From Candidatus Latescibacterota bacterium (GTDB taxonomy: Bacteria > Latescibacterota > UBA2968), in NCBI GenBank assembly GCA_965204375.1, contig OZ241986.1:960001-1024000 (forward strand): a stretch of 64,000 bases of DNA, written 5' to 3'. The notes under the pieces were generated by a model. It was not told the origin of the DNA. It did not search any database and saw nothing but the letters and a program-made list of their open reading frames with translations. This document shows, in pieces, positions 1,778 through 63,935 of the stretch; within the stretch, counting starts at the first letter, position 1; every line of letters begins with the position of its first letter. The translations under genes were made by a program, and so were the position numbers.

Positions 1778-3205
1778 TCACCAGTTCTGATCTATAATCA
1801 GAAATCCTTTTGCTTTACACAGTTCACTGTCTTTCCACCCGTAAAAGAGGAGCATGCCATCTCTTACATTTCCTTTTGGATCTTTAATCGGTTGGATATT
1901 GTTAAATTTCCAACCGGCATACTCCGGGGCATGTGGCGTCAAATCTCTCACCCTTTTCCAGGTAAATCCGCTATCGGTGGAGATCCACTCTTCAATATCT
2001 CCTCCACCTCTGGAGTCCATGTTGCCACGCGTTTCTTTTACAAATTTGTGATCACCTACTATCAGATAAGCATGTAGCGTGCCACTTTCATCCAGCCTGA
2101 GATAGCAACTGTTCCAATCATCAGTGGCAGGGGTGATAACCGTCTGTATCCATTCGTGATTGATATACCTCACATAATAGTAATTGCATCTGTCGGGCAC
2201 ATCTTCCGATAGCACATGCAAAAAGGCCGGATTATCATTTTCATCTATGACAATATCAGGTGGAACGCCTGCGCCTCTCCAATCGGTATCCCAGATTTTG
2301 CATTTGTCATTTGCAGTGCCAATATCAATGGGCGTTCTGACTGTCTCGCCATCAAAATTCGCGACCTCATGCGTTTGAAGGTTGATTTTTACATAATAGA
2401 GGTTGTATTTGAGGCCGAGATTCTTTTTGGTTCCATAACGAGGATTGTAAAACTTTTCTGGGATATCCTTTTTGTTGTCATCATAAGAACAAAATACGGC
2501 GTGCAAAAACTTTCCATCTTTACTCGGAAAGCAAGTGTGATAAGAAGACCACTCATTCAAGTCCATCGGATCATCTACTGTTGCCGTTTCTTCTCCCATG
2601 TTTAAATCTGTGACATCATTTTCAGGCCCCGACCAGGTCTTACCTTCATCGTCTGAAATTAAATATGACCACGAACTTCTGTGCTCTCCTGTTCGGAAAT
2701 AAACCACTTGCCTATTATTGTCTATGTGATAAACCGTAGGGTAAGAAAGCGAGTTTCTTATTTCAGGGGCTGGAGACCAGTCTTCTACACTGTTTCCAAT
2801 ATCCGCTACCTTTTTGGATATTAAATGTGTTCCTGGCGTTTTGTGACAACCCGACAAAATATGTAAAAAGTCATCATTGTCAGCCCAGATTACGGGGCAA
2901 TAATGCTGGTCGTTTGAGCCTTTGGTTCCCAACTGTAGGGGAGACGAAAAGGACTTTGTCTCGGGGTTAAAAGAGATAACAAAAGGATATGTCTTTTCCC
3001 TGGTCTCAGCATCCATTGGTGCCCCGCCATTATAAACGATATATACTCGATTGTTGATAAAGATGGCTTGAGGGCGCTGCCTTCTGTCATAGATCATTTT
3101 TAATTGTCCCCCACTTCCAAAGGGAACAACAGAAAAATCCGTTTGTTTCTCAGTATCCACAGCCTGACCTCCAAATGCAATCGGTGAAATAAGAAGGACT
3201 CTCAA
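1778..3205 (-). CDS. BNR-4 repeat-containing protein
   Basis: 475 aa; DQHYCP, SYPT, Asp-boxes SDDEGKTW and STDSGFTW; TTG start, N-terminus possibly truncated. Confidence 0.75.
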   Translation of the reverse strand: MRVLLISPIAFGGQAVDTEKQTDFSVVPFGSGGQLKMIYDRRQRPQAIFINNRVYIVYNGGAPMDAETREKTYPFVISFNPETKSFSSPLQLGTKGSNDQHYCPVIWADNDDFLHILSGCHKTPGTHLISKKVADIGNSVEDWSPAPEIRNSLSYPTVYHIDNNRQVVYFRTGEHRSSWSYLISDDEGKTWSGPENDVTDLNMGEETATVDDPMDLNEWSSYHTCFPSKDGKFLHAVFCSYDDNKKDIPEKFYNPRYGTKKNLGLKYNLYYVKINLQTHEVANFDGETVRTPIDIGTANDKCKIWDTDWRGAGVPPDIVIDENDNPAFLHVLSEDVPDRCNYYYVRYINHEWIQTVITPATDDWNSCYLRLDESGTLHAYLIVGDHKFVKETRGNMDSRGGGDIEEWISTDSGFTWKRVRDLTPHAPEYAGWKFNNIQPIKDPKGNVRDGMLLFYGWKDSELCKAKGFLIIDQNW

Positions 3206-3228
3206 TTTCCAGAAGTGCTACCATCTCA

Positions 3229-5151
3229 CTATTCTGCCTGTTTTGTAAAATCCAGGACCTTCTTGCGCGTTCCCTTGCTAATGGTGACGACCCCGCTATT
3301 CCACTCCGCATTGAGAAAGGGGCTTTCAAAGACTTTCTTTGGAGCGTAGTCAACAGGCTTGCCATTGATTGAGGGTACCGATTTGGTGCTGGTATCAAAG
3401 GTCAACTGATCGCCATAGATGGTTTTGTAGCGCAGCACCGTCCCATCCAGATGAACTTCACAGGCTTTCACCTTTTTTTTGAAGGCGTCGAAACTCGTGA
3501 CATCGCCCTTGGCCATGACTTCAATGATCACCGGTGCGTATTCATCATTGGGGATCATGGTCGCGTTTTCGGGAACAAAGCGATCCGTTTCAAACTCGCC
3601 ATCCATCCACTTGAAACCGCCTGTGGCCACGCGGATCGCCGCATAAGCGCCTTTGGCTTCCACATAGACCACGCCATCCTCTTCCACTGGCGCGCTCAAC
3701 CCGCTCTTCGACATCCAGATGATCATCTCGGCACCGTCCTTATGGTGCTTGAGCTTCTGGGTAATCAAGCTGCCTTTGCTCTGCACAGACCACTGTGCGT
3801 TCATGGCCACCCGGTTGTCTTTGGGGCGAACGATGGGAACAATACGCGCATCGTGTTCGCCGGCAAAGATCACGCCTTGCCAGCGGTTTTGCGCACTGAT
3901 CGCAGCCCAATCCTCTATGGGCCTCGCTTCCGTCATCGGCGTTCCCATGATGAAGGCGGGATCGCAGTAGCTGTAGCGCAGAATACCACCCCCATCGGTT
4001 CGCATCCTGGTCGGCATTTGCGTATCAGCAGTCTTCAAAGGCCGACCCGTTTTTCCCAGCCCCTGGGGGCGCTGCCGCACCTCGTAGCGTCCTCGTCCCG
4101 CCACGTCGATTGCGATATCGGCCACTACGGCTGGTGGTCGGTAGTCGCTGAGAGCCGCGTTCATGTCATGACCATAAACAGCAGGCTGCTTGCCGATGCC
4201 AAAATAGAACCAGGCCAGCGGCGCATTGCCATGCTCCCGGTTTTGCTTAAGCCCTTTCCAGAAATAGATGCGCGACCGTCCACCACCTTGAACGCCGTCA
4301 ATCTGTTCCTGCGCCCAATAGGCAAAATAAAGATCGAGCAACATCCCGGCCGACCGTCTCACTTGCGGGTCACCAAAGTCGTAGAAATTGTAGAATCCCT
4401 TGATCAGTGTGCTATTATAGCCGTCACTCATCATCTCGATGCACAGGCTTTTGCGCGCACGTTCACGGCAGTAAACCACAAAATACGCATTCCAGGCCCG
4501 ATAATGTTCCGCCGCTGTAGCGCCGTCATCATACTTGAGGTCCTTGTATTCGGGCCGATCTTTCGCGATCCTGGCAAACTGCCAGCAGACCGTAAAACTC
4601 ATGGCATGATGATTCTCTGACAGGTAGATGTGCCAGGTCTTAGATTTCTCGTATTCCGCCTTATCAAGCCGGGAAACCTTCCTGACGTACTCCCAGATCG
4701 GCTTGAGAGCGAGGGCTTCGGTCTTTTTGGTGATGCGATTACTACCGTTGGTGCCGTACATCTCAATCAGCCGCATGACGATCTCCGCATGCCAGTGAAA
4801 ACTGTCACGGTCATTGATGTCCAGGGGGTTGTCGAGATAGTGCTGGGCATTTTCGGCAAGTGCGGCATTGGCTTCTTCCAGCATCTCGTTCAGGTAGAGG
4901 CAACGTGCGGCAAACCCCACCATGGAATAGGAATAGGCCCGCACATAATTTCCCCGCCCGGGATCGAGTGGCTTCCGTTTCTTTGCCCGCACCAACGGCT
5001 TGCCGGATTCAGCGCAAAACATCGCATCCACTCGTTGTTCAAAGCCAGCTACGACCGCTTCGGGAGTTAAATTTTTCTCCACTGATTCAGCTCCTTGTGT
5101 CTGCCCAGTTATAAGTATAACGATCAGCATTATGCGGTTGATGATTCGCAT
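3229..5151 (-). CDS. Secreted hypothetical protein, possibly polysaccharide-lyase/heparinase-like; paralog of 5514-7613
   Basis: Likely start MRIINRIM with signal peptide. Shares SENH, WAQxQIxGxxGG, RWQG and KVFxSP motifs with the 5514-7613 protein. Fold is a guess. Confidence 0.65.
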   Translation of the reverse strand: MRIINRIMLIVILITGQTQGAESVEKNLTPEAVVAGFEQRVDAMFCAESGKPLVRAKKRKPLDPGRGNYVRAYSYSMVGFAARCLYLNEMLEEANAALAENAQHYLDNPLDINDRDSFHWHAEIVMRLIEMYGTNGSNRITKKTEALALKPIWEYVRKVSRLDKAEYEKSKTWHIYLSENHHAMSFTVCWQFARIAKDRPEYKDLKYDDGATAAEHYRAWNAYFVVYCRERARKSLCIEMMSDGYNSTLIKGFYNFYDFGDPQVRRSAGMLLDLYFAYWAQEQIDGVQGGGRSRIYFWKGLKQNREHGNAPLAWFYFGIGKQPAVYGHDMNAALSDYRPPAVVADIAIDVAGRGRYEVRQRPQGLGKTGRPLKTADTQMPTRMRTDGGGILRYSYCDPAFIMGTPMTEARPIEDWAAISAQNRWQGVIFAGEHDARIVPIVRPKDNRVAMNAQWSVQSKGSLITQKLKHHKDGAEMIIWMSKSGLSAPVEEDGVVYVEAKGAYAAIRVATGGFKWMDGEFETDRFVPENATMIPNDEYAPVIIEVMAKGDVTSFDAFKKKVKACEVHLDGTVLRYKTIYGDQLTFDTSTKSVPSINGKPVDYAPKKVFESPFLNAEWNSGVVTISKGTRKKVLDFTKQAE

Positions 5152-9623: not shown

Positions 9624-9706
9624 ACCAGTAGTTCTACACTCACGTTGTCTTGCGCTACACCGATCAGGTAGCGCGGACTGAACTCAAAACAATGGGAAGA
9701 ATATAT

Positions 9707-11122
9707 ATGGCACAGGCACAAGGACGACCACACATACTCATTCTCACGGCGGACCAGCTACGGGCGGATTCCATGGGCTGTGCCGGTCATCCGCGGGTCA
9801 AAACGCCGGTCATCGACTCGCTTGCCAACGAGGGCATGCGGTTCAGCAATTGCCACACCGTGTCGCCGGTCTGTCAGCCAGCGCGCGTGTCGTTCATCAC
9901 TGGCACCTATCCCCACAACCACGGTATCTGGTACAACCGCGGCGAACTGCCGATCAACTATCCGACGCTGTTCTCCCAATTGCAGGACGCCGGCTATCAC
10001 ACGGCAACCGTGGGCAAGTCGCATCTCTGGAGCCACAAGAAGGTGTCTCATTTGCGCGAAGGCGAGCCGTATATGCAAGCGCTCGGTTTTGACGTCATCG
10101 ACGAACTCGGTGGACCGCGGGGGAGTCTCAACTCCGGTTCGTATTTCACCGACTATCTGCGCGAGAAGGGTTTGTACGAGCTCTTCGTCAGCGATACGCG
10201 CGAACGGGTTCGCGACCCAAAGATCGTCAGACCAGCGGCGTTTGAGGAGGACGATCACATGGACGGGTATGTGGGCAGGCGCTCGGTCGAGTTTGTCGAT
10301 TCTGCGCCCGGGGACTGCCCGACCTGTCTGTTCGTCAATTTCCCCGGGCCACATGATCCGTGGGACGCGCCCGGGAAGTACGCCACCATGTATGATCCGT
10401 CCGATTCGCCGCCCGCCATCGGCGTGCCACTACGCCCCGCCACGCTCCCCGACGAAGTCGCTCAGAAGGAGGATTTCAAGACGGAGCCTGGCTTGACCGC
10501 CGAAATCGCCGCCGCGATCCGGGCAAACTACGATGGCAAGATCACATTCGTCGATTACTGGTGCGGTGAGATCCTTGCGGCGTATGAACGACGCGGCTGG
10601 CTCGATGATCTCTGTGTCGTGTTCTGGTCCGATCACGGCGAAATGACCGGCGATCACGGCAGGGTGTTCAAACGCACCTTTCACGAATCTGCGTTGCGGG
10701 TCCCCCTGATCCTGCGCTGGCCCGGACGGATACCGTCCGGTACTGTCTGCGACGCACTGGTGGAAACCATCGATGTCGGCCCTGCCTTGCTGGAAGCCCT
10801 GGGGCTCGACCAGTTGCAGATGTCCCTTGGGCAGTCGCTGGGGCATTTGTTCGCGGAACCGACCGCACACCACCGCACCGAGGTGCTATCAGAGATCTTC
10901 TACGGTGGTTCGCGCAATACGATGGTGAAAAACGAACGCTACAAGTACGTCATAGATCAGCACGGCATGGGGTACATGCTGTACGACATACAGCAGGATC
11001 CGGATGAGCAGCACAATCTGATCGGCGATCCCGAGCATCGGGATACGGAGAACGAGATGCGGGACACGCTGCTTCGCCGCCTCGCGGCCAGCGCGTTTGT
11101 CATGGACAGCGTGAACTTGTGA
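9707..11122 (+). CDS. Formylglycine-dependent sulfatase (S1)
   Basis: ADQLR, CQPARVSFITG (CxPxR), GKSH, PHDP, SDHGEM. Confidence 0.92.
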   Translation: MAQAQGRPHILILTADQLRADSMGCAGHPRVKTPVIDSLANEGMRFSNCHTVSPVCQPARVSFITGTYPHNHGIWYNRGELPINYPTLFSQLQDAGYHTATVGKSHLWSHKKVSHLREGEPYMQALGFDVIDELGGPRGSLNSGSYFTDYLREKGLYELFVSDTRERVRDPKIVRPAAFEEDDHMDGYVGRRSVEFVDSAPGDCPTCLFVNFPGPHDPWDAPGKYATMYDPSDSPPAIGVPLRPATLPDEVAQKEDFKTEPGLTAEIAAAIRANYDGKITFVDYWCGEILAAYERRGWLDDLCVVFWSDHGEMTGDHGRVFKRTFHESALRVPLILRWPGRIPSGTVCDALVETIDVGPALLEALGLDQLQMSLGQSLGHLFAEPTAHHRTEVLSEIFYGGSRNTMVKNERYKYVIDQHGMGYMLYDIQQDPDEQHNLIGDPEHRDTENEMRDTLLRRLAASAFVMDSVNL

Positions 11123-13325: not shown

Positions 13326-14057
13326 TTAAGTGCCTTTGTAGATATTGGAAGAGTACATTTCAAAGCCTTCGGGGCCGGGGTAGCCATCGAAGAGTTTGCA
13401 TTCGGGCACATTGCCAACTGCGCCATTTTTGAGCCAGTCGATGAATATGGGGTCGGCATTGCGGTGTGCGAGTTCGGCGAGGCCCGACGCATGAAGGTCT
13501 TGAACGCGATCGGGATTTTGAGAAGCGATATTGTCCAAAGAGCCGTAGGGGGTGAGGATGCTGTCTTCGGGATTTGGGTGCCATTCGAGATAGCCTTCAC
13601 GATCGAAGACTGTAAAGTAACCGCGTTGAAGATGTCGCATCATTTTGCCGCGAGCCACGCCTGATAGGGCGATTTCGCGGTGGCCCATGCTGTTATTGCG
13701 CGCAGCGTTGAGGATGTCGTAACTTTCGATATTGTCGGGAATAGGCGCGCCTGATAGGTTGGCGATGGTGGCGAAGAAGTCCTGAGGTTGAAAGATCGCA
13801 GAACTGCGACCTGTGTCGCCTTCGGGTGTTTTGATGAAAAGTGGGATGTGGATTTCCTGTTCGCGAACGGGTGCGCCTTTGCCGATCATGACGTCGGTGC
13901 GATAGGGGATGGTGGGAAAGCTCGCTGCGAAGGCACGGTCGAAACACCAGGATTGTGAGGATAGGCGGTCGAGGTTGGGTGTTTCGATCCAGTCATTGCC
14001 GTTGGCGCCGATATAGTCGTAGCGCATGGTGTCGATGATTAAGAGAATGATGTTCAT
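13326..14057 (-). pseudogene. Sulfatase-like gene with large in-frame internal deletion
   Basis: Sulfatase N-terminus (IIDTMRYD, TPNLD, SFPTIPYRTDVM) runs straight into the C-terminal motif GKG..EQEIHIPLFIK near 13885. The core, including SDHG, is missing; 243 aa. Confidence 0.75.
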
Positions 14058-16273: not shown

Positions 16274-16537
16274 GTGAATGCTCCTGTTTCGAGTTGGTCA
16301 TGGTATCGTCTGTGATGTTACAAGTGATCGGTTAATATGAATACAATATTGGGCTGCTTTGTACTGGCCACAAAGACCTCCTTTGATTACTGGCTGAGGC
16401 ACACCCGTTGTCGAGTGGCGATTTCCTTCACCATCGACAGTGGGCGAGATGTAAAATCATCTTTGAACAGTTTCTAAACTTTGTTAAGTTTTTGTTATGA
16501 TCTTGCCCTGTTCCCAACCCTATTGAGGCTTAAGTCT

Positions 16538-17590
16538 ATGGCTGATCCCGAAATTCTGGTGCTGGGCGGTCCCGAGCGCGATCTCTATCTGGCCCCGGCC
16601 GATCTGGAGCGCCTGGATAGCTTTGCGAATTGGACGTGGCTCCCCTGTGAAGCGGGCCAGGTCCAGCCCGGTCACCAGGCCGAATTGTCGCGACGGCTGG
16701 CGTCCGTCCAGGCCCTGATCGTCTATTCGGGGGCGCCCTACATCGGCCCCGAATTCATGGAACAAGCCCCCGAGCTACGCCTCATCGGCGAATTGAACGG
16801 CGATCGTTTCGCCGAGCGCATCGACGTGGAGGCGGCCTGGCAACGAGATATCCGCGTTGTCGATACCACCAATGGCTCGTCCTACCCTGTCTCTGAGTGG
16901 GCCCTGGGCCTTATTCTCGTATCGTTGCGCAACGCCGGTTATTATCTGCGCCGCTACCTGGAGGGAAATTGCCGCAAAACCCGCGACAACCCCAGCTTCC
17001 TGCGCGGCGAACTCACCGGCAAGACCGTGGGTCTGATCGGCTGCGGCCATGCTGGCCGTCGCCTAATAGAATTGCTGCGCCCTTTCCGGGTCGCCATCCA
17101 GGTTTACGACCCCTACCTGCCTGGAACCATGGCCGAAGCCCTGGGCTTTTTCCTGACCTCACTCGAACAGGTCCTGTCGAGTTCCGATGCGATTGTCTGT
17201 CTGGCCCCGCTGACCCCCGGGACCCAGGGCATGATCGGTCGGGTCGAACTGGATCTGATCCCCTCGGGGACTGTACTGGTCAATGTCTCCCGCGGTCCTA
17301 TCATCGATTCGGTCGCTCTGGTGGAACGCCTCAAGCGCGGCGATATTATCGCCGGCCTCGATGTTTTCGATCCCGATCCTATCCCCGACGGCCACGAAAT
17401 AACCGGGCTGGACAATGTATTCCTTACGCCCCATATCGCCGGCGTCACCCGGGCCGCCTACTGGCGCTTTTTCGAGCTGATGGTAGATGAGTTGGACCGC
17501 TTTTTTCACGGCTTTGAGCCCTATTTCGAATTGACCCAGCGCACCCTGGATGACCGCAGTGGCCGGCCCCCCGCCACTCATTTGTTCTGA
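16538..17590 (+). CDS. D-2-hydroxyacid dehydrogenase family protein
   Basis: GKTVGLIGCGHAG, YDPY, LVNVSRG, AGLDVFDPDP, LTPHIAG. Confidence 0.88.
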   Translation: MADPEILVLGGPERDLYLAPADLERLDSFANWTWLPCEAGQVQPGHQAELSRRLASVQALIVYSGAPYIGPEFMEQAPELRLIGELNGDRFAERIDVEAAWQRDIRVVDTTNGSSYPVSEWALGLILVSLRNAGYYLRRYLEGNCRKTRDNPSFLRGELTGKTVGLIGCGHAGRRLIELLRPFRVAIQVYDPYLPGTMAEALGFFLTSLEQVLSSSDAIVCLAPLTPGTQGMIGRVELDLIPSGTVLVNVSRGPIIDSVALVERLKRGDIIAGLDVFDPDPIPDGHEITGLDNVFLTPHIAGVTRAAYWRFFELMVDELDRFFHGFEPYFELTQRTLDDRSGRPPATHLF

Positions 17591-19794: not shown

Positions 19795-19854
19795 GGCAAA
19801 GACCTCAATAATGGTTCCATGTGCCCTCCATTGCCTCTGAAATTTGAACGTTCA

Positions 19855-22116: not shown

Positions 22117-22124
22117 AATGTCGT

Positions 22125-23363: not shown

Positions 23364-23423
23364 TTGAAGGGCTTCCGCTTCATCGAAGTATCATAACTTT
23401 TTCCTATTTCCCTTAATCCCGAA

Positions 23424-24461: not shown

Positions 24462-24537
24462 GGACTTACCTCCAAATACTTTGCTAATATCAGTTTTGTG
24501 GAAAATGGGCGACTGTCTCGCCGATTGCCTCCCGTGT

Positions 24538-26719: not shown

Positions 26720-26744
26720 GGCTAACCTGTCTTTGAGAGTTACG

Positions 26745-36086: not shown

Positions 36087-36088
36087 TG

Positions 36089-40103: not shown

Positions 40104-40138
40104 GGGGGCCTCCAAAGAGAATTAACTGCCGCGATTTC

Positions 40139-40182: not shown

Positions 40183-40201
40183 GGAGGCGCGAATCCGATT
40201 T

Positions 40202-40286: not shown

Positions 40287-40301
40287 GAATTGCCTCTTTA
40301 G

Positions 40302-40780: not shown

Positions 40781-40920
40781 TATTTTTTAAGACAGTCCTT
40801 TCCTTTTATCCTGATATTATGACTCTCTTCAGCAGAGATCCAAATGGCGCTCCACTTGTATCAGTCAACCCATGTCGTCTTTGAAGTAAAAACCCTTATC
40901 TCGTCCTCCAGACTCTTTAG

Positions 40921-42651: not shown

Positions 42652-42654
42652 TTA

Positions 42655-43583: not shown

Positions 43584-43668
43584 TTAGAGATTCCTCAAGT
43601 TCTTTAATCTCAGGCTCCGACGCATTCATGAGTCGCAGATTCTCCAATCGAAGCTGTGAACAGCCACA

Positions 43669-44521: not shown

Positions 44522-44620
44522 TGTTAATGTCCTGGGGTTTGCGAACCCCGAACGAAGCGAAAGGTTGTCCGATAGAGCCAAGCGGCGAATGGCGCGTAGC
44601 GCAATACCGTGCTGTTAGAT
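44522..44620 (-). other. Degenerate or chimeric attC-like site
   Basis: ATCTAAC (RYYYAAC) 10 bp after the methyltransferase stop, then GC-rich partial hairpins; ends at a degenerate core ATTAACA. Confidence 0.55.
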
Positions 44621-48645: not shown

Positions 48646-48861
48646 TTACAGATCATCGGGAGTCAAGCCCGTGCGTTTCGCAATTCGAGATAACATGCGT
48701 GGGCCTATTTCATCTCGATCATGAAATGCAAATACGTAATTTGGCCACCCGGGGCGAGCTAAAATTCGATGAGAAGTGCCTGACTGACGTTTTATAGTCC
48801 ACCCCATTCGCAGAAGAGCCGCCAAAACCTGCCGCGCTTTTGTTGATGGCCATCGATTCAT
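48646..48861 (-). CDS. hicA: HicA toxin
   Basis: ALLRMGW..RQSGTSHRIL..H..EIGPRMLSRI. Confidence 0.88.
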   Translation of the reverse strand: MNRWPSTKARQVLAALLRMGWTIKRQSGTSHRILARPGWPNYVFAFHDRDEIGPRMLSRIAKRTGLTPDDL

Positions 48862-49058
48862 ACTGATCCTGCAAAGACTTCACCTAATTCTGGGATTTCT
48901 TCACCGTGTTCTAGACGATCAGCTATCACTCGCAAGGCCAATGCTTTTACTTTCAAAATGGCTTCTTTTTTATTCTCTCCATAAACCATCACGCCAGGCA
49001 ATTCTGTTACTTCAGCAAGCCATCGGCCGTCTTCTTCTTTTTCCGTTTCTATATTCAT
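48858..49058 (-). CDS. hicB: Short HicB-family antitoxin
   Basis: EEDGRWLAEVTELPGVMVYG..EA; ATGA overlap with hicA. Confidence 0.88.
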   Translation of the reverse strand: MNIETEKEEDGRWLAEVTELPGVMVYGENKKEAILKVKALALRVIADRLEHGEEIPELGEVFAGSV

Positions 49059-50580: not shown

Positions 50581-50770
50581 TTGACAAAATACGCTCATAA
50601 GTATATATTTTTATTATGTTTAAGTCCATAAAATACAGACTGCGCCCGACGAAAAAGCAAGAGAAAGTCTTGCTGGCACATGCTGCCATAAACATTTTGA
50701 CGTTGGGGCTACAACGTCAGGCGACCTAACCGCCAAGAAGCCCAACTGCTCTATCGTTGGGAGTAGTCAC
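50581..50770 (+). mobile_element. Miniature IS200/IS605 (tnpB) remnant: promoter, collapsed tnpB and right end
   Basis: TTGACA-17 bp-TATATT; 37-aa ORF 50616-50729; then AGAAGCCCAAC..GTTGGGAGTAGTCAC right-end hairpin and TCAC terminus. Confidence 0.8.
50616..50729 (+). pseudogene. tnpB: tnpB collapsed to its first 22 and last 15 codons
   Basis: MFKSIKYRLRPTKKQEKVLLAH (N-terminal KYRLxPTxxQ) fused in frame to AAINILTLGLQRQAT* (C-terminal NAAxNI). Confidence 0.8.
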
Positions 50771-52191
50771 CTCTGCAAACATGACGGATCTACTTCCACA
50801 GAATTTGCTGTGTGTTTGTCCAGTTGATCAGACAATTGGTGGACAACATCTGCATATTCTGGATCTCGTGCTATATTTGTGAATTCTTCTGGATCAGCGT
50901 ACACATCTGCGAGGAAGATGTCTTCATCTTCAGATTTCGGTTTTTCGCCATCAAGCAACACATTTTTATCAAGGCGATACTGGCTCGTGCGTATGCAGCT
51001 TCGCCGCGGCCAACCGCGATCACCATACCAATCGCCACGGCCACCATTGGGTGCCATCTTGCTGAATGGCCGGCCATATCCGATTGTAGAGTAGATACAG
51101 TCGGGTGGTGGATCAGTGAAAAGATCGCGGCCTTTGAATTGCGAAGGTGTTTCGATGCTGGTAAAAGAAAAGAGTGTTCGTGCAATGTCCAGACTGTCGC
51201 AGATGTCATCCCGCACTTGCTCTGCAGGTATGGTGCCTGGCCAGGAGATTAGAAGTGGTACGCGATGCACTGTGGGCGTGTAAGTCAGTTTTTCGAAGGC
51301 GCCTGTCTCGCCAAGTGGATTGCCGTGGTCCGCACCAAATACGATGAGGGTTTGTTCCTGGCGACCAGTTTCCTCAAGAAACTCTAAGATCCGTCCGACT
51401 TGCGTGTCAATCCAGGCGACCTGTGCGTAGTAGTGAAGGCGTCCCGCACGGAGTTTTTCGAGATCCATTCTGGCCACACCAAAAACTTCGGCAACGCGTT
51501 TTTCAAATGCAGAGAGGGTGTCGGGCAGCGGATCGGGCAGGCCGGGGTCTTGATCGTCGAGAAGCTTTACATATTGTGCGGGAGGTAATACCGGTGTGTG
51601 GGGCTGAAGAAGGGAAATGCGCACGAGATAAGGGGAGGTTGCTGTTTGGAGCCAGTGTAAGGCATTTTCAACGACTGAGTCGGGAGGATAGGGTTCATCG
51701 TCTGGAAAAATACCGCCGTTCATGCCGCCGTAGGGCGAGCGGATCATCTGCACAGCGTCTTCGCCAAGATGTTCCCAGATTTTCATTTCACCACCCGTTC
51801 CGTCGTGGTATTGGAAGATTTCATGCCCTGGATTGGCACCTGGACGTATTTCGGGGGCAACATGGATCTTTCCAAAATTGGCAGTTGAATAGCCGTTCTG
51901 TGAAAATACGTTAGGGAAAGTTTGCAGGATACGGGGCAACCGGAAATTTGGCCATGCACCTTCATTGTTGTACACGCCTGTGTCTTCGGGATATAGACCA
52001 GTTAGCGTGCAATATCTGGAGGCAACACAAACAGGCGCATTGCAAAAGTTATTTGTGAATCGCACACCGCTGCTCGCCAAACGGTCGAGATTTGGCGTGC
52101 GCAACTGCAATCTGGGATGCCCATAACAGTCCAGCGCATCGGTGCGCAGTTCGTCACAGTAAATCCAGATAATATCAGGTTTTTCAGGCAT
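50767..52191 (-). CDS. Sulfatase (S1-like)
   Basis: CDELR, TPNLD, CVASR (CxAxR variant), GKIH, PHTP, ADHG. Confidence 0.88.
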   Translation of the reverse strand: MPEKPDIIWIYCDELRTDALDCYGHPRLQLRTPNLDRLASSGVRFTNNFCNAPVCVASRYCTLTGLYPEDTGVYNNEGAWPNFRLPRILQTFPNVFSQNGYSTANFGKIHVAPEIRPGANPGHEIFQYHDGTGGEMKIWEHLGEDAVQMIRSPYGGMNGGIFPDDEPYPPDSVVENALHWLQTATSPYLVRISLLQPHTPVLPPAQYVKLLDDQDPGLPDPLPDTLSAFEKRVAEVFGVARMDLEKLRAGRLHYYAQVAWIDTQVGRILEFLEETGRQEQTLIVFGADHGNPLGETGAFEKLTYTPTVHRVPLLISWPGTIPAEQVRDDICDSLDIARTLFSFTSIETPSQFKGRDLFTDPPPDCIYSTIGYGRPFSKMAPNGGRGDWYGDRGWPRRSCIRTSQYRLDKNVLLDGEKPKSEDEDIFLADVYADPEEFTNIARDPEYADVVHQLSDQLDKHTANSVEVDPSCLQR

Positions 52192-54561: not shown

Positions 54562-54673
54562 ACGTGTGAGAATCACCCCGGCAACGCCTGCTTTTACGTA
54601 ATGTGATGGCATCATTAAACGGTCCGTCGTATTGTGAAAATCTCAAGAGAAAGTCTAATCATCTTCGCTTGTA

Positions 54674-54877
54674 TCAGTCAACCCATTTCGTCTTTGAAGT
54701 AAAGTCTTTGATCTCTTCTTCCAGGTCCCTCAGAGATTCCTCAAGTTTCTTTATTTTCGCCTCCGGTGCATCCTTAAGTCGCGAGTTCTCCAATCGAAGT
54801 TGCAGGATTTCACGCTGCGTAACATAGCCGTAGCCTTTGAGTTGAGTTACAAGATTCGGGAACCCAATATACTGCAT
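54674..54877 (-). pseudogene. Probable 3' fragment of an unknown gene
   Basis: Homologous to the IS-split fragment at 40861/43665; no clear RBS and the frame stays open upstream (PSSFLNWD). Confidence 0.6.
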
Positions 54878-54926
54878 GTCCCAGTTCAGGAAGGAAGAGG
54901 GGGTCGGGTTGGCTGATTCTCGCCTT

Positions 54927-56339: not shown

Positions 56340-56738
56340 CTGGAGTCAGGTCTTCCAGAATAATCTGTTCGGTTCGGCTTCGGTTTGGCTACTATTATAC
56401 AATATAGCTTTCTATACAGGGCATTTCCAGCGAAATTTTTTTCTATTCTATGCTCAAGTATTTGGATGAAGAGCCGAATAGTTCAAAGCCGTGCATAGTC
56501 GTGTGATGCAGCGTGCTCACTTCGTTACGGCGGTAGAAGCTCTGTGGAGAGGTCCCCCGAGAAACCTCTCGCTTTGATTTGCGCCACGAAGCCATCGATC
56601 TCTGCCTTGAAATAGCTGGCCATCGAGGACAGTGACCGAATCGCTCTGCGCTCTTGAGGCGGCGAAGTCTCGCCATCTTTCCAGACTTTCCTCTATCCGG
56701 CAGGCCTCGCCTTGCCACTCCTATTGTTTTTCGTCTTC

Positions 56739-58285: not shown

Positions 58286-58372
58286 GGTTTCCTCCCGTGA
58301 ATTCGGTTCTCGCAACTATCTATTGTGTCGTGAAAAAGGCTGTTCATATCGATCTTGATTTTTGTTTTTTTC

Positions 58373-58416
58373 TCATATATTTTTTAGAAATACATCATAT
58401 ATTTTTTAGAAACACA
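58373..58416. repeat. 22-bp tandem duplication in a promoter region
   Basis: tcatatattttttagaaataca / tcatatattttttagaaacaca, just after a TTGATT -35-like box. Confidence 0.8.
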
Positions 58417-58506
58417 AACCTAATCAGATAGAGAGCTTGTCTGACCCGTGCGCGTGTTCAGCGCAGCACCAGGCTCGCCCGAACGCTCTATCAGAGGAGA
58501 AACTGA

Positions 58507-60030
58507 ATGGCTGGCAAAACCCATCCAGAAACACTGCTTGACCTGCTCGAATCGGGCGCGCCGTCGCACCCGGCTATCGTGGCCCCCGGCGGGCCTATTG
58601 TGAACTACGACTCGTTGCGGCGTCAGGTGTGGACGCTTGCGGCGCAACTCCGCGCTATGGGCATAGATCGTGGTGACAGGGTAGCCATCGTCCTGCCCAA
58701 CGGCATAGAAGCGATTGTGACATTTTTGGCGGTCGCTGCGGTTGGCACGGCGGCTCCGCTGAACCCCGCCTACAGGCCCGCAGAGTTCGAGTTCTACTTG
58801 GACGACACCAACGCCACGGCGCTCATCACCTCGGACGACGGAGGCGAGGAGGCCCGCAGTGCTGCCCCGGCCTCGGTGATGGATATCCGGGCCGCGCTCG
58901 ACGAAGAGGGCCGCGTCAGTCTGACGGGATCCGGAGCCGTAGCGGAGGGGCGCGAAATCGCTCCGTCAGAGCCTGACGACGTGGCACTCGTGCTGCACAC
59001 CAGCGGGACGACCAGTCGTCCCAAGCGCGTGCCGCTGGCGCACCGGAATCTCACTGCATCCGTCGAGAACATCGTCGAGACCTACGACCTGTCCGACAGA
59101 GACGTATCGCTCTGCGTCATGCCGCTGTTTCACGTGCACGGGCTGATGGCATCCACGCTCTCGACTCTGCACTCGGGCGGGACCGTGGTCGTGCCGCCGC
59201 GCTTCAACCCGCTGGGGTTCTGGCCGCTCGTCGATGAGTATGAAGTCACGTGGTTTTCCGCGGTGCCGACGATGTTCCGGGCACTGCTGTCCAGGGCCCG
59301 GAGTGGGCGTGCGTCCCAGAATGCGGATAGACTGCGCTTCATCCGCTCGTGCAGCGCTGCCCTCGCCCCGGCTACAATGCAGCAGATGGAGTCGATTTTC
59401 GGTGTACCGGTGATCGAGGCCTATGGCATGACAGAGGCCGCACACCAGATGGCGTCGAACCCCCTGCCTCCTGACAATCGCATCCCCGGCTCAGTCGGAC
59501 AAGGGACTGGCGTGAAGATCGGGATTATGGACGAAGTGGGCGAGTTTCAGACGCCGGGTACGGTTGGCGAGGTGGTGATCAGTGGCCCCAACGTGATCCG
59601 GGGATACGAGTCCAATCCCGAGGCGAACGCTTCTTCGTTTGTCGGTGCTTGGTTCAGGACCGGAGACCAGGGCGAGCTTGACGAGAACGGTGTGCTGACG
59701 TTGCGGGGCCGGATCAAAGAACTCATCAACCGCAGTGGCGAGAAAATTTCTCCGGTCGAGATCGACGAGGTGCTGCTGTCGCACCCCGCTGTATCGGAGG
59801 CCGTGTCGTTCGGCGTCCCACACCCCACCCACGGAGAGGAGCCTGCCGCGGCGATCGTTCTCGGATCCGAGGCAACGGAGAAGGATCTGATCGCCCACTG
59901 CCGGCAGAGCTTGGCCTCCTTCAAGGTCCCGCGCAAAATTCACATCGTAGATACCATCCCGCGGACGGCAACGGGTAAGGTGCAGCGCCGGATCGTCGCG
60001 GAGGTTATCACCGGAGGGCCTTCGACGTGA
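58507..60030 (+). CDS. Acyl-CoA synthetase, oxalate-CoA ligase-like
   Basis: LHTSGTTSRPKRVPL, PLFHVHGL, FIRSCSA, EAYGMTEAAHQMASNPLPP, WFRTGDQG, TATGKVQR. Confidence 0.88.
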   Translation: MAGKTHPETLLDLLESGAPSHPAIVAPGGPIVNYDSLRRQVWTLAAQLRAMGIDRGDRVAIVLPNGIEAIVTFLAVAAVGTAAPLNPAYRPAEFEFYLDDTNATALITSDDGGEEARSAAPASVMDIRAALDEEGRVSLTGSGAVAEGREIAPSEPDDVALVLHTSGTTSRPKRVPLAHRNLTASVENIVETYDLSDRDVSLCVMPLFHVHGLMASTLSTLHSGGTVVVPPRFNPLGFWPLVDEYEVTWFSAVPTMFRALLSRARSGRASQNADRLRFIRSCSAALAPATMQQMESIFGVPVIEAYGMTEAAHQMASNPLPPDNRIPGSVGQGTGVKIGIMDEVGEFQTPGTVGEVVISGPNVIRGYESNPEANASSFVGAWFRTGDQGELDENGVLTLRGRIKELINRSGEKISPVEIDEVLLSHPAVSEAVSFGVPHPTHGEEPAAAIVLGSEATEKDLIAHCRQSLASFKVPRKIHIVDTIPRTATGKVQRRIVAEVITGGPST

Positions 60031-61010
60031 GGTTTGCATTGGTCGGTGCCGGAGCTATTGGGGCCTACCTGGGTGCTAAGCTCAGCGTGGCCGGTCACGA
60101 AGTCTTCCTGATCGCGCGTGGTTCGCATCTTCAAGCCATGCAGTCGCGCGGCGTCAGCGTGCGGAGTCCAGAAGGCGACATCAAGGCCCGTCCCACCGCA
60201 ACGGACGACTACAGTCTGGTGGGCGAGGTTGACTTCGTCTTTCTCACGGTGAAGGCCCACAGTCTGCCAGAGATCGCTCCCAAGCTGGGACCGCTTCTCG
60301 GGCCGGAGACGGCTGTTGTATCGACCCAAAACGGAATCCCGTGGTGGTACTTCCAGGGTCACGGCGGCCCCTGGGACGGAAGGCGAATCGAGAGGTTGGA
60401 TCCGAACGAGGTCGTCTCTTCCGCCATTCCCGCCGAGCGCGTCATCGGATGCATCGTCTATCCTTCGGCTTCCATTGCCGAGCCAGGGGTGATCGAGCAT
60501 GTGGAGGGCAACAGGTTCGCGATCGGCGAGCCGGATGGCTCGACCAGCGACAGGTGCAGAAGGCTGGCCGACGCCTTGAAGAAATCAGGCCTTCGCTGCC
60601 CGATCAGGTCCCGGATACGGGGAGACATGTGGGTCAAGCTGCTGGGGAATGTCGCCTTTAATCCCATCAGCGCGCTGACTCGCGCGACGCTGGTCGAGAT
60701 CGCCACGCATCCCGAAGCCCGCGCTCTGGCTCACTCCGTCATGGAGGAGGCCGACGCGGTGGCCCGCGCCCTTGGCGTGAGGGTGCCAATCTCGGTCGAG
60801 CGGCGCATCGCCGGAGCTGTCGCCGTGGGCGAGCACAAGACCTCTATGCTTCAGGACTTGGAGACCGGTAGGCCGATGGAACTCGAAGCCGTTGTGGGCG
60901 CTGTCATCGAGCTTGGAGAGATGCTCGACGTTCCCGTGCCCAACACCAGGGCCGTGTACGCGGCCACCAGGCTCCTGGACGAGATCGCTACGAGGAACAG
61001 GACGGTCTAA
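60027..61010 (+). CDS. Ketopantoate reductase family protein (possible oxalyl-CoA reductase)
   Basis: GAGAIG, QNGIPWWYF, WVKLLGN, KTSMLQD, E; GTGA overlap with the ligase. Confidence 0.85.
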   Translation: MRFALVGAGAIGAYLGAKLSVAGHEVFLIARGSHLQAMQSRGVSVRSPEGDIKARPTATDDYSLVGEVDFVFLTVKAHSLPEIAPKLGPLLGPETAVVSTQNGIPWWYFQGHGGPWDGRRIERLDPNEVVSSAIPAERVIGCIVYPSASIAEPGVIEHVEGNRFAIGEPDGSTSDRCRRLADALKKSGLRCPIRSRIRGDMWVKLLGNVAFNPISALTRATLVEIATHPEARALAHSVMEEADAVARALGVRVPISVERRIAGAVAVGEHKTSMLQDLETGRPMELEAVVGAVIELGEMLDVPVPNTRAVYAATRLLDEIATRNRTV

Positions 61011-62071
61011 CCGACGTATGAGCCGGTGAGTTCGCTGGATACGCAATCCGGCTCCTTCGAGACCACCTCGGCCCATATGGATGCTGTTTGATCCAGTGAC
61101 AACTTGAGTTGAGACTTGTGTAGATCCTCATTGAGGAGCCACGAACCAATTTCCCCAGTACGAACTGCATACCACGTATAGGCATACAGGACATCGCGTT
61201 TGTCATCGAGTTCCGTGATCTCCTCGCCCACGGCCAGGCGGGATGGATACGATGTGATGTGCCGCTCCACAACATTAGCGGGAGCCTTGGCGTACCTTGC
61301 TTCTACCTCATCCGCCGTAAGAGAGAACAGGCGAATGAGGCGATTCGCAATTCCTTCTTCCTGGTGCTCGCGAGCTAGAACGCAAAAACGAGTGAAAGCC
61401 CTTCCAAAGGACCGATCTCCATGCCCCCACCTTTCCTTCAGATATGGGATTATCACACGTGCGAGTTCCTGTATAGAGATCCCTGCCTCAATCAGACTAC
61501 CTGCCTCCAGATGTGACTGAACTCGCTGAGCGAGACTGGTTACACGTCTGATTCGCTCGATTTGGCGTGCCCGGACAACCGATGGGTCAAATCGACCATT
61601 GGAAAGTAGCACAACAAATGCAGGAGTATCGCAATCCTCAGACGCGTGAACTGATTGACCGAGGTGGCTCTTGTCGGTCGCATGGAAAGTCCTCTCGTTG
61701 GCCATCAACTCATCTAAGTGACGCTTGCCTTTGATCAAGTCGTCTGCCTCGTCGGCTGTAAAATGAAGTCGGCCTGCGTCAACAGACGTCGGCCATGTGT
61801 CTCGAGCCCACTCCCTTGTGATGGACAAAGCAAGCTCGTCCACTCTTTTTGGAAGACTGTCGTCCGCCACTCTGGTAGTAATGTAGATGAGGTCTATATC
61901 TGATATAGGCCACGCCATTCCTCGCCCAACGCTACCCCCTAGAATCACACCTGCAACGCCAGGAACAGATGCGATCCGTTCGATGGCTTCAACGGTTCGC
62001 TCCTGTAGAATGAGTTCCCAGTTTTCCAGGTGCGCTTGGAAGAGATCAGTTCTAAACAAAATCGAACTCAC
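61007..62071 (-). CDS. Nucleotidyltransferase-domain protein
   Basis: GVILGGSVGRG..SDIDL; GTG start 4 bp after a GTTATGC core-like site. Confidence 0.75.
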   Translation of the reverse strand: MSSILFRTDLFQAHLENWELILQERTVEAIERIASVPGVAGVILGGSVGRGMAWPISDIDLIYITTRVADDSLPKRVDELALSITREWARDTWPTSVDAGRLHFTADEADDLIKGKRHLDELMANERTFHATDKSHLGQSVHASEDCDTPAFVVLLSNGRFDPSVVRARQIERIRRVTSLAQRVQSHLEAGSLIEAGISIQELARVIIPYLKERWGHGDRSFGRAFTRFCVLAREHQEEGIANRLIRLFSLTADEVEARYAKAPANVVERHITSYPSRLAVGEEITELDDKRDVLYAYTWYAVRTGEIGSWLLNEDLHKSQLKLSLDQTASIWAEVVSKEPDCVSSELTGSYVG

Positions 62072-62075
62072 TTTC

Positions 62076-62100
62076 GCATAACTACGGGATTAACGAACTG
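62076..62100 (-). other. 3' half of an attC-like site
   Basis: Minus strand CAGTTCGTTAATCCCGTA-GTTATGC immediately before the CDS start; no matching 5' half seen. Confidence 0.4.
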
Positions 62101-62238
62101 TTACGGTAATTTATACCAAATCTATGTATCTCCGACCTTGCGGGAATTCTTCTCTTCAGAGGTTGTATCCCGAACATGTTCGCAGATGCTTCCTCTGGAG
62201 GCATCATTTCTATTCAGAACCCGCCTCCTTTAGCACCA

Positions 62239-63366
62239 TCACACCGTCGTCTCCAAATACACCTTCAACGCTGCAGCCAGATCGCGTCCAAATACACGCG
62301 CCAGTTCTGGACTTGTATTCAGATCGCCCACATTGGCATAGGGAAACTCAATTGCCGTTGCCAATTGAACGCCCGGTAATTCACTCGCCCACCGACCAAA
62401 GCTCTTGCCAACTGCATAATTCTCTGCCGTATTCCACTCCACGCCAAAGGGCAAATTATCCGCTGCATAAAAGGGCAAGCCTCCCGTTCGTTCCGCTTCC
62501 AAAATATGCGAAAACCGCATCTGTTCCTGCCAGTGGGCTTCTGACTCAGACCCCACCAGATAAATCGTCTCATTTCGATTCCTGCGAATCCACGGACAGT
62601 GCAGATCAATCGCTACCTTCAGTTTGCCAGCGTTCCAATCCGGTACCCTTTCTCGAATCACAGCCGTTTCAATATGCACACTCTCCCCGACATAATCCCG
62701 GTTGTGATCCCGCGGCTTCCGATTCTTCCCCTGATCGCCATCCTCCACACCGTCTTTATCTACAAACGGAATCACCAGACATTCAACCCGTCCCTGAAAC
62801 CAGCGCCCCAAATCACCCTCACCAAGTATCGCCGCCATCATGCCTTCCAGCACATATGACTGCATCATCTCACAGCAGTGGTGTCGCGCCGTAATCAACA
62901 CGCGCAGATCCGCCCCACCGTCCAGCCGCCCCACATACAACATCTCAACATCACGTCCTTTGTGCGTCTCGCACAACGTCTCAGCCACCAGATAATCCGA
63001 ATCCACATACGACGCCAAAAACCGGTCCAGATCGGCCTGCACATACGGCATCCCAAAACTGAACCGCACATCATCCGCGTCATTCGCAAACGCATACACA
63101 AACGACTGTCCATCCACCGCATCATTACCCAACCAGCGCCACGTCATCCCACCGTCTTCACTCATCCCAGGACCACGCGTGCCAATCACATTGCTGCCGG
63201 TAAAGTGAAACCGCACGGTTCGGCCTGCTGCGCCACGCACCCGAAAATACCAGTAGAACCAATCGCGATCCGTATCGCGCAGATCCTGCTGAACAAACAC
63301 ATCATCACCGTCAATTCGCTCAGCGATGATATTCCCACCCGGAAAATCACAATCTATCATAATCAT
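62239..63366 (-). CDS. M14-family zinc carboxypeptidase-like protein
   Basis: DFPGGN, WFYWYF, ARHHCCE, DGVEDG, DHNR, IDLHCP, IEFPY. Confidence 0.85.
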   Translation of the reverse strand: MIMIDCDFPGGNIIAERIDGDDVFVQQDLRDTDRDWFYWYFRVRGAAGRTVRFHFTGSNVIGTRGPGMSEDGGMTWRWLGNDAVDGQSFVYAFANDADDVRFSFGMPYVQADLDRFLASYVDSDYLVAETLCETHKGRDVEMLYVGRLDGGADLRVLITARHHCCEMMQSYVLEGMMAAILGEGDLGRWFQGRVECLVIPFVDKDGVEDGDQGKNRKPRDHNRDYVGESVHIETAVIRERVPDWNAGKLKVAIDLHCPWIRRNRNETIYLVGSESEAHWQEQMRFSHILEAERTGGLPFYAADNLPFGVEWNTAENYAVGKSFGRWASELPGVQLATAIEFPYANVGDLNTSPELARVFGRDLAAALKVYLETTV

Positions 63367-63485
63367 TGAACACGCTTCTTTATGATGTCGATTTGCATTT
63401 ACTCCTCCACTATCCATTGGATCCGTCAGTGCTTCGTAATCTGAGGATGCTGATAGGGGTTGGTTTTTGTCTTGTTTTAGGCACT

Positions 63486-63935
63486 CTATTTAAGTGCAAA
63501 TTCTAATAAGGGAATAGTGCGCCCCGGAATCGCCCCTGAAGGTACTTCTCCAATTCGAACGGAACCTCTTGACAAATAAAATGATTCCGCATACGGATCT
63601 GAGTGGATAGACATTTTGTGAAAACCTAACTGCCTCGCTTGATCAATCGCATGATCCCAAAGTCTCTTCCCATATCCCTGGTCTATTTTGCTTGGCTCTA
63701 TAAATAAATCAGACAGTTCGAGTTCATTCTCTCTGGTTTTTAGCCTATAAAAGCCGACGACCTGTTCCATTTCTTCTATCACATAGACGGTGTGATGGCT
63801 AATGTCTTGTTGGGTATAAGTTAGATCCTGGCGGCATGCTTCAAGAAAATCTGCATCGTAGTTCCAATGCGCTTTTGAGCGCACTGCAAGGCTACTCAAT
63901 TTTTCATTTTCTTCAGCTTTTGCAGTTCTGATCAT
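63486..63935 (-). CDS. GNAT acetyltransferase
   Basis: RSKAHWNY, LFIEP..DQGYGKRL, SDPYAESFY. Confidence 0.88.
   Translation of the reverse strand: MIRTAKAEENEKLSSLAVRSKAHWNYDADFLEACRQDLTYTQQDISHHTVYVIEEMEQVVGFYRLKTRENELELSDLFIEPSKIDQGYGKRLWDHAIDQARQLGFHKMSIHSDPYAESFYLSRGSVRIGEVPSGAIPGRTIPLLEFALK

Follow-up and report, generated by a model that had tools for sequence, protein, structure and literature searches.

A stretch of 64,000 bp in the genome of a 'Candidatus Latescibacterota' bacterium (G000:C1:960001-1024000, here called the window) holds a long collection of tightly packed genes, most of which are encoded on one strand, have unrelated functions and are partly separated by remains of other genes. 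How such a collection is built, and how it loses its members, is the question raised by this locus. The initial annotation had regarded it as a capture-and-prune system distinct from integrons. This distinction did not survive the comparison with related genomes, which have an IntI-like recombinase, an attI-like site and canonical attC sites at the same array. In our opinion the window probably represents most of a sedentary chromosomal integron cassette array, which is without an integrase and is eroding. The host genome consists of one 6.34-Mb contig with 50.8% G+C. Region 22001-41000 was searched in 30 relatives, and the extended locus was compared with seven complete or near-complete congeners, which are 'Candidatus Latescibacterota' metagenome-assembled genomes. 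The relatives of this genome are associated with sponges. Window coordinates above 64,000 lie beyond the window.

Integron-type sites and recombinase

For the identification of attC sites, a scan for TAAC...GTTA hairpins was combined with a covariance model, R1. They replaced a first heuristic (AAC...GTT ends and folding), which did recover the aadA1 attC on plasmid R100 and was dropped as unspecific, with 19 matches in 50 kb of this plasmid. The stricter scan revealed a family of imperfect palindromes of 83-122 nucleotides (nt) in the relatives. R1 was built from eleven sites of four relatives, none of them from the genome studied here, and is our own model, not that of IntegronFinder. The eleven sites have the R'' box CTAAC and the R' box GTTAG, with invariant TAACA and ACGTTA ends. 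In the arrays of the relatives R1 identified 78 sites, all located on the array strand. G037 has 25 of them in 60 kb, G039 and G019 have 14 and 17, each in 40 kb, and G023 has 2; the arrays of the genus contain 6, 5, 3, 2, 2, 0 and 0. Whole-genome searches of three sister-family genomes gave 32, 23 and 22 sites, mostly in one-strand clusters of 100-150 kb. In the genome studied here R1 gave four matches, which share the array strand and each closely follow a gene on its 3' side:

78808-78912 (window coordinate), array strand: best attC, after the first GNAT gene past the boundary site; R1 48.8 bits
44522-44620, minus strand: degenerate attC 3' of a methyltransferase gene, R' CATTAAC; R1 29.1 bits, E 1.3e-5
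33524-33577, minus strand: shortened attC 3' of higA, R'' GCTAAC...R' GTTAGC; R1 21.3 bits, E 0.003
40139-40231, minus strand: weak degenerate attC-like site 3' of a GNAT gene; R1 14.5 bits, E 0.33, non-significant alone

The three matches inside the window, two degenerate and one shortened, substantiate the broken attC-like sites which had been noted from the sequence. In the shortened site 24 model positions are missing and the hairpin has -21.2 kcal/mol; G008 and this genome diverge directly after its GTTA. By eye, the weakest site reads GCCTAAC...GTTAGCG. No R1 match was found over 93 kb of flanks and controls. In the genome-wide search, in which 150 of 2567 first-look candidates were scored, two matches reached E 0.01 (78808-78912 and 44522-44620), both of them in the array. 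As imperfect palindromes with R'' and R' boxes, on one strand and 3' of cassettes, the sites have the properties of attC.

No integron integrase was found in this genome. Its two tyrosine recombinases (PF00589) are Xer-like and lie far from the array, at 3.37 and 4.26 Mb, and its best segment against the integron-integrase model TIGR02249 reaches 88.6 bits. Two reverse transcriptases were detected, both far from the array as well, and Ku was not found in the genome. In the sister family, a tyrosine recombinase gene has an element of ~150 nt attached at its 3' end, and the intact recombinase heads the arrays of G039 and G019. Within the genus it is intact in 2 of 21 genomes (G005 and G010). In G010 it is located exactly between the conserved flank gene and the array, and the order is recombinase, site, a 218-amino-acid (aa) open reading frame (ORF) and an attC with 75.8 bits (L060). 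The array recombinase scores 197 and 214 bits against TIGR02249 (below the cut-off of 265), 191 and 218.6 bits against NF040815 'XerA/integron integrase' (cut-off 220) and 175 and 194 bits against XerC (cut-off 335), TIGR02249 being among the top-scoring models and outranking XerC. With a canonical IntI of the same order it aligns over the full length at 35% identity, and all 45 gap positions fall within the stretch that holds the IntI-specific region. Units of a 5'-truncated recombinase gene plus site occur within the arrays (three in G037, three in G039 and two in G019); the right edge of the unit is precise and the left edge variable. In the genome studied here, tblastn identified recombinase relics at window 62128-62319 and 68440-68523. 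The earlier statement that no responsible recombinase lies in the window is correct insofar as only relic fragments are present here; relatives, however, have the IntI-like recombinase at the array head.

The consensus of the site 3' of the recombinase ends with ATTACCGTAAC-TGTTC-GKTAAT-CCC-GTAGTTA, and from GTAGTTA onward the downstream sequence differs in every copy. The recurring ~150-nt element of the relatives was found in the window between two array genes, at 62079-62231. The following features belong to it:

62075-62241, minus strand: attI-like element, consisting of the final codons of a lost IntI-like recombinase gene and the conserved element of ~150 nt, from comparison with relatives
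61007-62071, minus strand: first gene past the attI-like site; 354 aa, without a Pfam match

The element has the core ATTACCGTAAC-AGTTC-GTTAAT at 62089-62110, ends with GTAGTTA and is 89.8% identical to the 3' end of the intact G010 recombinase gene and its downstream element. Three copies of the core (<= 2 mismatches) exist in the 6.34-Mb genome, each of them on the minus strand. They lie at window 62089, at genome 816731 and at window coordinate 79489, which is the upstream boundary of the array. Two of the three lie in the array and on the array strand. Site copies were also found 3' of a reductase gene in G004, G008 and G018, and a two-gene difference of 1.75 kb between G008 and G018 starts exactly at a site copy. 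The element is a candidate attI, which follows the recombinase 3', has a precise downstream edge and is followed by an ORF and an attC, both in G010 and here. Its position at the 3' end of the recombinase gene is unlike that of the attI in class 1 integrons. The first gene after the site (61017-62082) is 97% identical to a gene in one genome of another family (f2) and 87-95% identical to genes in seven more, and a search of the other 20 genus genomes gave no match. Judged by these identities, the 354-aa gene at 61007-62071 is a recent inter-family transfer.

Some further loci of the recombinase family were observed. In G031, a canonical IntI gene is followed ~400 nt on by a short recombinase, at C1:2493564-2495721 and 2158606-2160406; up to 10 kb away from the first of the two, R1 gave no match. 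At the array head of the genome studied here, a small ORF (window coordinate 79536-79970), which we take to be DUF2442-like, fills the place of the lost recombinase. Two small ORFs, presumably DUF4160- and DUF2442-like, are located upstream of the recombinase in G039 (L058:2850-3357).

Content and exchange of the array modules

The array comprises ~57 kb, from window position 22,000 to ~79,500, and extends past the window, since collinearity of the right flank starts at window coordinate ~79,584 (a 10-kb block with 92.6% identity in G018). ORFs of the window were called with a crude greedy caller, which placed 49 of 66 raw ORFs on the minus strand, and were curated with Pfam scans of 60 ORFs. 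After curation, about 50 of 55 genes other than insertion sequence (IS) genes are on the minus strand. The strand bias described in the initial annotation was thereby reproduced, as was the unbroken run of 36 kb, which is interrupted solely by two IS elements. By itself the strand bias is not exceptional, because the window is at about the 90th percentile of co-orientation among 64-kb windows of the genome (crude caller) and longer single-strand runs exist elsewhere. The layout is as follows:

22125-58146, minus strand: main co-oriented run of one-gene modules (cassettes and cassette relics), from ORFs, Pfam and congener comparison
33601-34203, minus strand: HigB-HigA toxin-antitoxin cassette (HigB-like toxin 75.7 bits, HTH_3 partner)
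48646-49058, minus strand: HicA toxin gene (48646-48861; HicA 47.9 bits) after a 66-aa ORF (48858-49058)
40912-43588, plus strand: IS1380-type element (40912-42654) abutting an IS5-type element (42651-43588), from Pfam and genome copies
9650-11122, plus strand: sulfatase (Pfam)
16481-17590, plus strand: 2-Hacid_dh (Pfam)
20851-22116, plus strand: BNR (Pfam)
58507-60030, plus strand: AMP-binding (Pfam)
60027-61010, plus strand: ApbA (Pfam)
58297-61025, plus strand: two-gene module of an AMP-binding enzyme and an ApbA/PanE-type reductase, from congener comparison; GC 0.585-0.589

The left part of the window has many genes for glycan degradation, which encode sulfatases, BNR/sialidase-like proteins, a PL4-type lyase and a fusion of an alginate lyase with PhyH. 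It is followed, from ~22 kb onward, by the dense minus-strand run of unrelated small and medium genes. These encode three APH-type kinases, five GNATs, three SAM methyltransferases, HAD, Ham1, a trpD-like transferase, an MFS transporter, an aldo/keto reductase, HigBA, HicA, an S8 peptidase, GH4, PhyH, an EF-hand protein, a sulfatase, an FAD oxidoreductase and a PD40 protein. That neighbours are functionally unrelated is evident from Pfam (trpD-like, GH4, HigBA, HicA with a weak HicB-like partner, sulfatases, kinases and GNATs), as the initial annotation had stated. The 66-aa partner of HicA is weakly HicB/UPF0150-like, with scores below the cut-off (UPF0150 17.6 and HicB_lk 15.2 bits). In RNA run X18, for which only contigs exist, the contig with HigBA (33601-34312) has a depth of 260 vs 2-24 for adjoining array genes.

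In all seven congeners the same genes were found at 90-98% identity, as separate one-gene blocks in a species-specific order. Block ends and ORF ends differ by a few up to some tens of bases. Per congener, 40-56% of the array length is shared with this genome (at least 86% identity). The arrays of the congeners are 81-96% co-oriented (G008 37/41, G018 27/30, G015 42/49, G010 46/50, G016 36/40, G004 24/25 and G002 26/32 ORFs), and this extends to the unshared array content. Even G008 and G018, which are 96-97% identical, show many gene-sized differences in their arrays. Two control regions of 19 kb, located at 3.0 and 1.5 Mb, show collinearity in 5 of 5 relatives, in blocks of 7-17.5 kb with 89-94% identity; a third one, at 5.6 Mb, is more fragmented, with its order kept. 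The locus has variable content between conserved collinear flanks, as is typical for flexible islands and transfer hotspots.

Third-codon identity is 82-93% for flank genes and 64-99% for array modules. The lowest values (64-69%) were obtained for APH1 (five genomes) and unk239 in G015, the highest (95-99%) for GH4, PD40, unk392 and GNAT2 and for unk239 in G010 and G016. The divergence is mixed, and the modules are therefore of mixed history, as expected with exchange between species. Together with the 97% identity of 61017-62082 to a gene of another family, this supports the uptake of foreign DNA that had been proposed.

A bias caused by the replication strand was rejected as the cause of co-orientation. 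There is no genome-wide strand bias, and the array genes are head-on to the fork inferred from cumulative GC skew and dnaA at 4.669 Mb. The minimum of the GC skew is near 5.15 Mb and its maximum near 1.65 Mb; the local skew of the window is reversed.

The IS1380-type element has ~20 other copies in the genome and the IS5-type element ~5. The AMP-binding and ApbA module has identical ends in G006 (L048) and G051 (L049), at another chromosomal locus, whose counterpart in this genome (3,818,837|3,818,913) is empty. No target duplication or terminal inverted repeat was seen at the inspected module ends. An Rfam search of the window gave no match.

Several observations concern the wider genome and more distant genomes. 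The control regions, otherwise collinear, are interrupted solely by interspersed repeats of ~85-170 nt (L042:1310-1453, L043:12266-12446), of which each of five relatives has dozens of copies. The sulfatase at 50767-52191 has 162 tblastn matches in the genome (at least half of the query length, E <= 1e-8), indicating a very large sulfatase complement. On the minus strand, at genome 2,326,560-2,368,796, one open frame extends over ~42 kb and is packed with internal repeats which are 75-92% identical. Homologues of a 249-aa array gene (42% identity) occur in a Poribacteria (L039) and a Chloroflexota (L040) metagenome-assembled genome in long co-oriented runs, one with four GNATs and methyltransferases and the other with DUF5069, PhyH, BNR, glyoxalase and NUDIX. 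In these two sequences of 17-21 kb each, neither an R1 attC match nor a recombinase match was found.

Gene relics and deletion scars

Stubs were identified by comparing the window with itself and with the remainder of the genome. The initial annotation had counted at least six genes surviving as a 5' stub joined to a 3' stub. The stubs are real, and four two-ended ones were verified instead of six; all other relics are one-ended or internal fragments. Diverged segments which recur in the window, also reported initially, were recovered by the self-comparison. The relics and one duplicated gene are:

25617-25850, minus strand: MFS transporter stub, first 93 nt plus last 75 nt of the gene intact at 31169-32368 (self-comparison)
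13326-14057, minus strand: sulfatase with a 710-bp internal deletion between 7-bp repeats TTTGCCG (paralogue at genome 806804-809408)
50372-50774, no strand assigned: repeated element of ~1.37 kb (IS remnant), both ends kept and ~1 kb of the middle deleted
56465-56721, minus strand: 536-aa LRR-type gene reduced to two joined pieces, with 1049 bp lost in between
54620-54891, minus strand: 3' relic (67-aa ORF) of a 186-aa gene with an intact copy at 65479-66039
33481-33528, minus strand: 48-nt internal fragment of an APH-type kinase gene (= 39261-39309; self-comparison)
34275-34305, minus strand: 31-nt copy of the aldo/keto reductase leader (33449-33479), an 'orphan start'
35626-36086, minus strand: GNAT gene with a duplicate at 40299-40759 (97.6% identity; self-comparison)

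The MFS stub forms a 234-bp ORF; 996 bp are gone, and its junction shows 0-1 nt of homology and 2 odd bases. An intact copy of the LRR-type gene is located at window coordinate 74098-75708. The 186-aa gene has three relics, its intact copy lying just beyond the window, and the IS pair sits within a 3' relic of this gene (40855-40911 plus 43583-43656). The orphan start, a feature that had been claimed for the spacers, corresponds to the copied reductase leader; in G002 the two genes which flank this position are directly adjacent. Scars were also searched genome-wide by their signature, two adjacent matches here which are far apart in a low-copy partner. Of 22 such 'deleted paralogue' signatures, 4 lie in the window, which is ~1% of the genome; one of these four is due to an IS inserted into the partner copy, and the events do not count as independent.

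In addition, 39 array spacers of at least 25 nt were compared with seven relatives, where the frame of the relative had to be open over at least 120 codons. In 13 of the 39 spacers, a piece of 20-128 nt (87-100% identity) matches a frame that is open in relatives and absent here, although some of these matches are short and at frame ends and may be shared untranslated sequence. Examples are:

25851-25930, minus strand: deletion-scar spacer, 66 of 80 nt from a gene of ~390 codons present in 6 of 7 relatives (96.6-100% identity)
39117-39212, minus strand: deletion-scar spacer, 68 nt of a gene open in G010 and G015
66040-66266 (window coordinate): deletion-scar spacer, 128 nt
19795-19854, minus strand: spacer with 39 nt derived from a 497-aa gene, which G008 and G010 have

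Several genes were lost more than once. The 497-aa gene is lost in G018 too, at a different junction. In G010, the MFS gene was reduced to a stub independently, at the corresponding place in the array and with different breakpoints, and of the HigBA pair higA is kept and higB lost. A sponge metagenome of another study contains an internal deletion of 891 bp in the 2-Hacid_dh gene, with 8 shared bases, and a near-exact loss of the S8 peptidase gene, with 14 nt left at each end. At the junctions of rearranged modules, the overlap is 1-31 nt or unrelated filler of 0-55 nt is present, and no common motif was found across them. Recurrence of k-mers in 40 spacers did not exceed that in shuffled sequences, except for pieces of one repeated gene, and a shared boundary motif of the modules was dropped for this reason. 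A 27-nt reductase leader was likewise dropped as a boundary motif, as it has two occurrences. The motif ACCG-N1-6-TATGAG was observed just 3' of three module ends (32423 and 34814 on the minus strand, 61010 on the plus strand). It has 39 copies in the genome (~0.4 expected per 64 kb), was defined post hoc and may serve as a lead for a secondary site.

The pruning by kb-scale deletion at short homologies that the initial annotation had proposed is supported in that deletions of 0.3-6 kb which leave scars do occur, with mixed junctions (0-31 bp of homology or filler). Since these resemble ordinary deletion (0-31 bp of homology or short filler), no dedicated machinery is needed. The pruning is ordinary illegitimate or short-homology deletion, recurrent and independent across species. 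Public sequencing runs containing the window sequence, sponge metagenomes among them, are available as contigs, which break at repeats, and uncovered parts are uninformative. Contigs from samples X1 and X2 cover much of 22001-40900 with 0 differences and bridge the DUF5069/higB junction.

Alternative explanations and significance

Taken as an integron in decay, the locus may have the following history. An IntI-like tyrosine recombinase would have been present at the upstream end of the array in the past of the lineage, and probably still is in some relatives. Promoterless one-gene cassettes ending in attC would have been inserted at the attI-like site 3' of the recombinase gene. The product would be a long, co-oriented and packed collection of acetyl-, methyl- and phosphotransferases, NUDIX proteins, reductases, glycan-degrading enzymes and toxin-antitoxin pairs. 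The genome studied here would then have lost the recombinase gene by deletion, and most of its attC sites would be gone or damaged. Ordinary deletions of 0.3-6 kb with 0-31 bp of junction homology or a few filler bases would remove cassettes that are redundant or dispensable. Because genes are packed within tens of bases, such deletions presumably have to spare the neighbours; selection on these would tolerate deletions within one dispensable gene or those which remove a gene almost exactly, so stubs and fragment spacers would build up. Turnover without the recombinase would proceed by recombination between array variants of related species, by duplication and by IS insertion. Co-orientation would stem from directional cassette insertion and would be maintained since recombination between array variants preserves orientation. 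We infer that the arrays were built by the short recombinase and not by a canonical IntI that has since been lost, and that present-day exchange is driven by homologous recombination. More tentatively, the short IntI-like recombinase may be a working integron integrase of a new class, without the additional domain and co-oriented with the cassettes, which inserts these at the site at the 3' end of its own gene; on the sequence comparisons this is a possibility that we would rather doubt than expect.

A number of results weigh against this interpretation. The first attC heuristic showed no enrichment here (8 per 50 kb vs a mean of 6.9), and R1 rests on 11 sites (effective number 2.99), which makes its E-values rough. 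Most spacers of the array are too short for an attC. The four matches are 4.3-34 kb apart, outside the 4-kb clustering rule of IntegronFinder, and do not form a cluster of attC sites lacking integron-integrase (CALIN): the closest pair is 4.3 kb apart, of which 2.7 kb is IS sequence, and one site of this pair is at E 0.33. Insertions and deletions between G008 and G018 have fillers of 4-32 nt and no second site copy, and are therefore unlike clean site-specific insertion. The array recombinase misses the IntI-specific region (model positions 175-235 of TIGR02249 are unmatched). The additional domain is called necessary for IntI activity in the title of a paper cited in the available text of PMC4889954, and the array recombinase may for this reason be inactive on attC sites. 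A canonical IntI, which 2 of 53 genomes of the order (0 in the genus) have above the cut-off, could have built the arrays and then been lost. Among 21 genus genomes, 19 are without the recombinase, and their arrays still differ. In G030, a 314-aa recombinase with 51% identity to the array recombinase is present in six identical copies, which suggests that self-mobile elements belong to the family. Finally, the junction of the MFS stub is unbridged by public contigs.

The locus could also be a flexible genomic island or transfer hotspot unrelated to integrons, with turnover by homologous recombination, deletion and IS elements, into which an unrelated element was once inserted and left the attC-like hairpins and recombinase relics. 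Arrays that vary although 19 of 21 genus genomes have no recombinase, variable overlap or filler at junctions without a common motif, the mixed divergence of modules and 4 attC matches among ~50 genes would all fit an island. We regard it as unlikely, because the homologous array of the sister family has 14-25 one-strand attC per 40-60 kb, recombinase and site lie exactly at the array head beside the conserved flank and are followed by ORF and attC, a relic of the site marks the array boundary of this genome, and the co-orientation of 81-96% also holds for unshared content. Tandem accretion would make attC irrelevant: circles with the short recombinase, the site and cargo would integrate site by site at the array head, and redundant recombinase copies would decay afterwards. 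This would account for the 5'-truncated units in G037, G039 and G019, for relics at two places here, for the precise right and variable left edge of the units and for the six identical copies of a relative of the recombinase in G030. As it explains neither one-gene modules with a 3' attC nor the gene-by-gene shuffling among congeners, we judge it quite improbable.

The dedicated capture-and-prune system of the initial annotation, with programmed short-homology trimming by unknown means, is very unlikely. Its capture side is accounted for by the integron parts in the relatives, the junctions are heterogeneous and candidate machinery was not found (Xer-like recombinases and reverse transcriptases far off, no Ku). 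The enrichment of scars (4 of 22 genome signatures in 1% of the genome) and the independent deletion of the same genes speak for it, as do many deletion ends near gene ends, which selection on packed neighbours would explain as well. Least probable, and only barely credible, is an artefact of the assembly, i.e., a chimeric consensus of co-existing strains in a metagenome-assembled genome. The relatives are also metagenome-assembled genomes, the contigs of two runs break at repeats and none of the listed contigs bridges the MFS-stub junction. However, the contigs of X1 and X2 have no differences on 22001-40900 and bridge the DUF5069/higB junction, seven independent congeners have the same type of array with stubs and scars, and the genome is a single 6.34-Mb contig.

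In deletional genome decay, kb-scale deletions with short or no homology leave gene remnants in intergenic regions, and losses are independent by lineage. The array shares the short- or no-homology deletions of kb scale, the spacers made of gene remnants and the independent repeated losses. Unlike genome-wide reduction, these are confined here to one hypervariable array of a large 6.3-Mb genome. Flexible ('additive') islands or transfer hotspots can be without mobile-element genes and have conserved flanks, variable content and module exchange. Conserved flanks, species-variable content and the exchange of modules among relatives are also found here, whereas strict co-orientation, one-gene modularity and integron-type sites set the array apart.

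CALIN are described as clusters of attC sites lacking integron-integrase, and the integrase of complete integrons is defined by PF00589 plus intI_Cterm (PMC4889954, available text). As in the sedentary chromosomal integrons and CALIN of that text, the cassettes of the array are co-oriented, mostly carry one gene and have unrelated accessory functions including toxin-antitoxin pairs, and attC with ends of the RYYYAAC / GTTRRRY type lie on one strand. That relatives have a tyrosine recombinase of the IntI/Xer branch at the head of the array is a feature of the integrons in this source, and integrase loss in the genome studied here one of its CALIN. In contrast to integrons, the recombinase of the relatives is without the IntI-specific region, is transcribed in the same direction as the cassettes and has the insertion site at its 3' end. 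In contrast to both, the genus has lost most attC, many spacers are gene fragments and the attC spacing exceeds the 4-kb rule. According to the available text of PMC4889954, recombinases without the IntI-specific profile near attC always have <3 sites and are not IntI; the short recombinase departs from this rule, as it heads arrays with 14-17 R1 sites (G039 and G019). In the available texts from our literature search, no paper linking integrons with Latescibacterota or sponge symbionts was found beyond co-mentions in resistome, survey and review papers.

With these findings, an apparently new capture-and-prune system becomes testable and largely known, namely an integron late in life. What is new is that a recombinase without the IntI-specific domain heads attC-rich arrays, which conflicts with the generalisation in the available text of PMC4889954. 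Eight congeners and the sister family give a stepwise view of decay, in which the integrase is lost first, the attC sites next, and cassettes then turn to stubs and spacers. During this decay the array keeps its orientation and continues to exchange modules. This bears on the origin of CALIN elements and on the share of 'intergenic' array DNA that is gene debris. If the short recombinase is indeed an integrase of a new class, the arrays of Latescibacterota would represent a second integron architecture, and the genus would be a natural case of decay after integrase loss.

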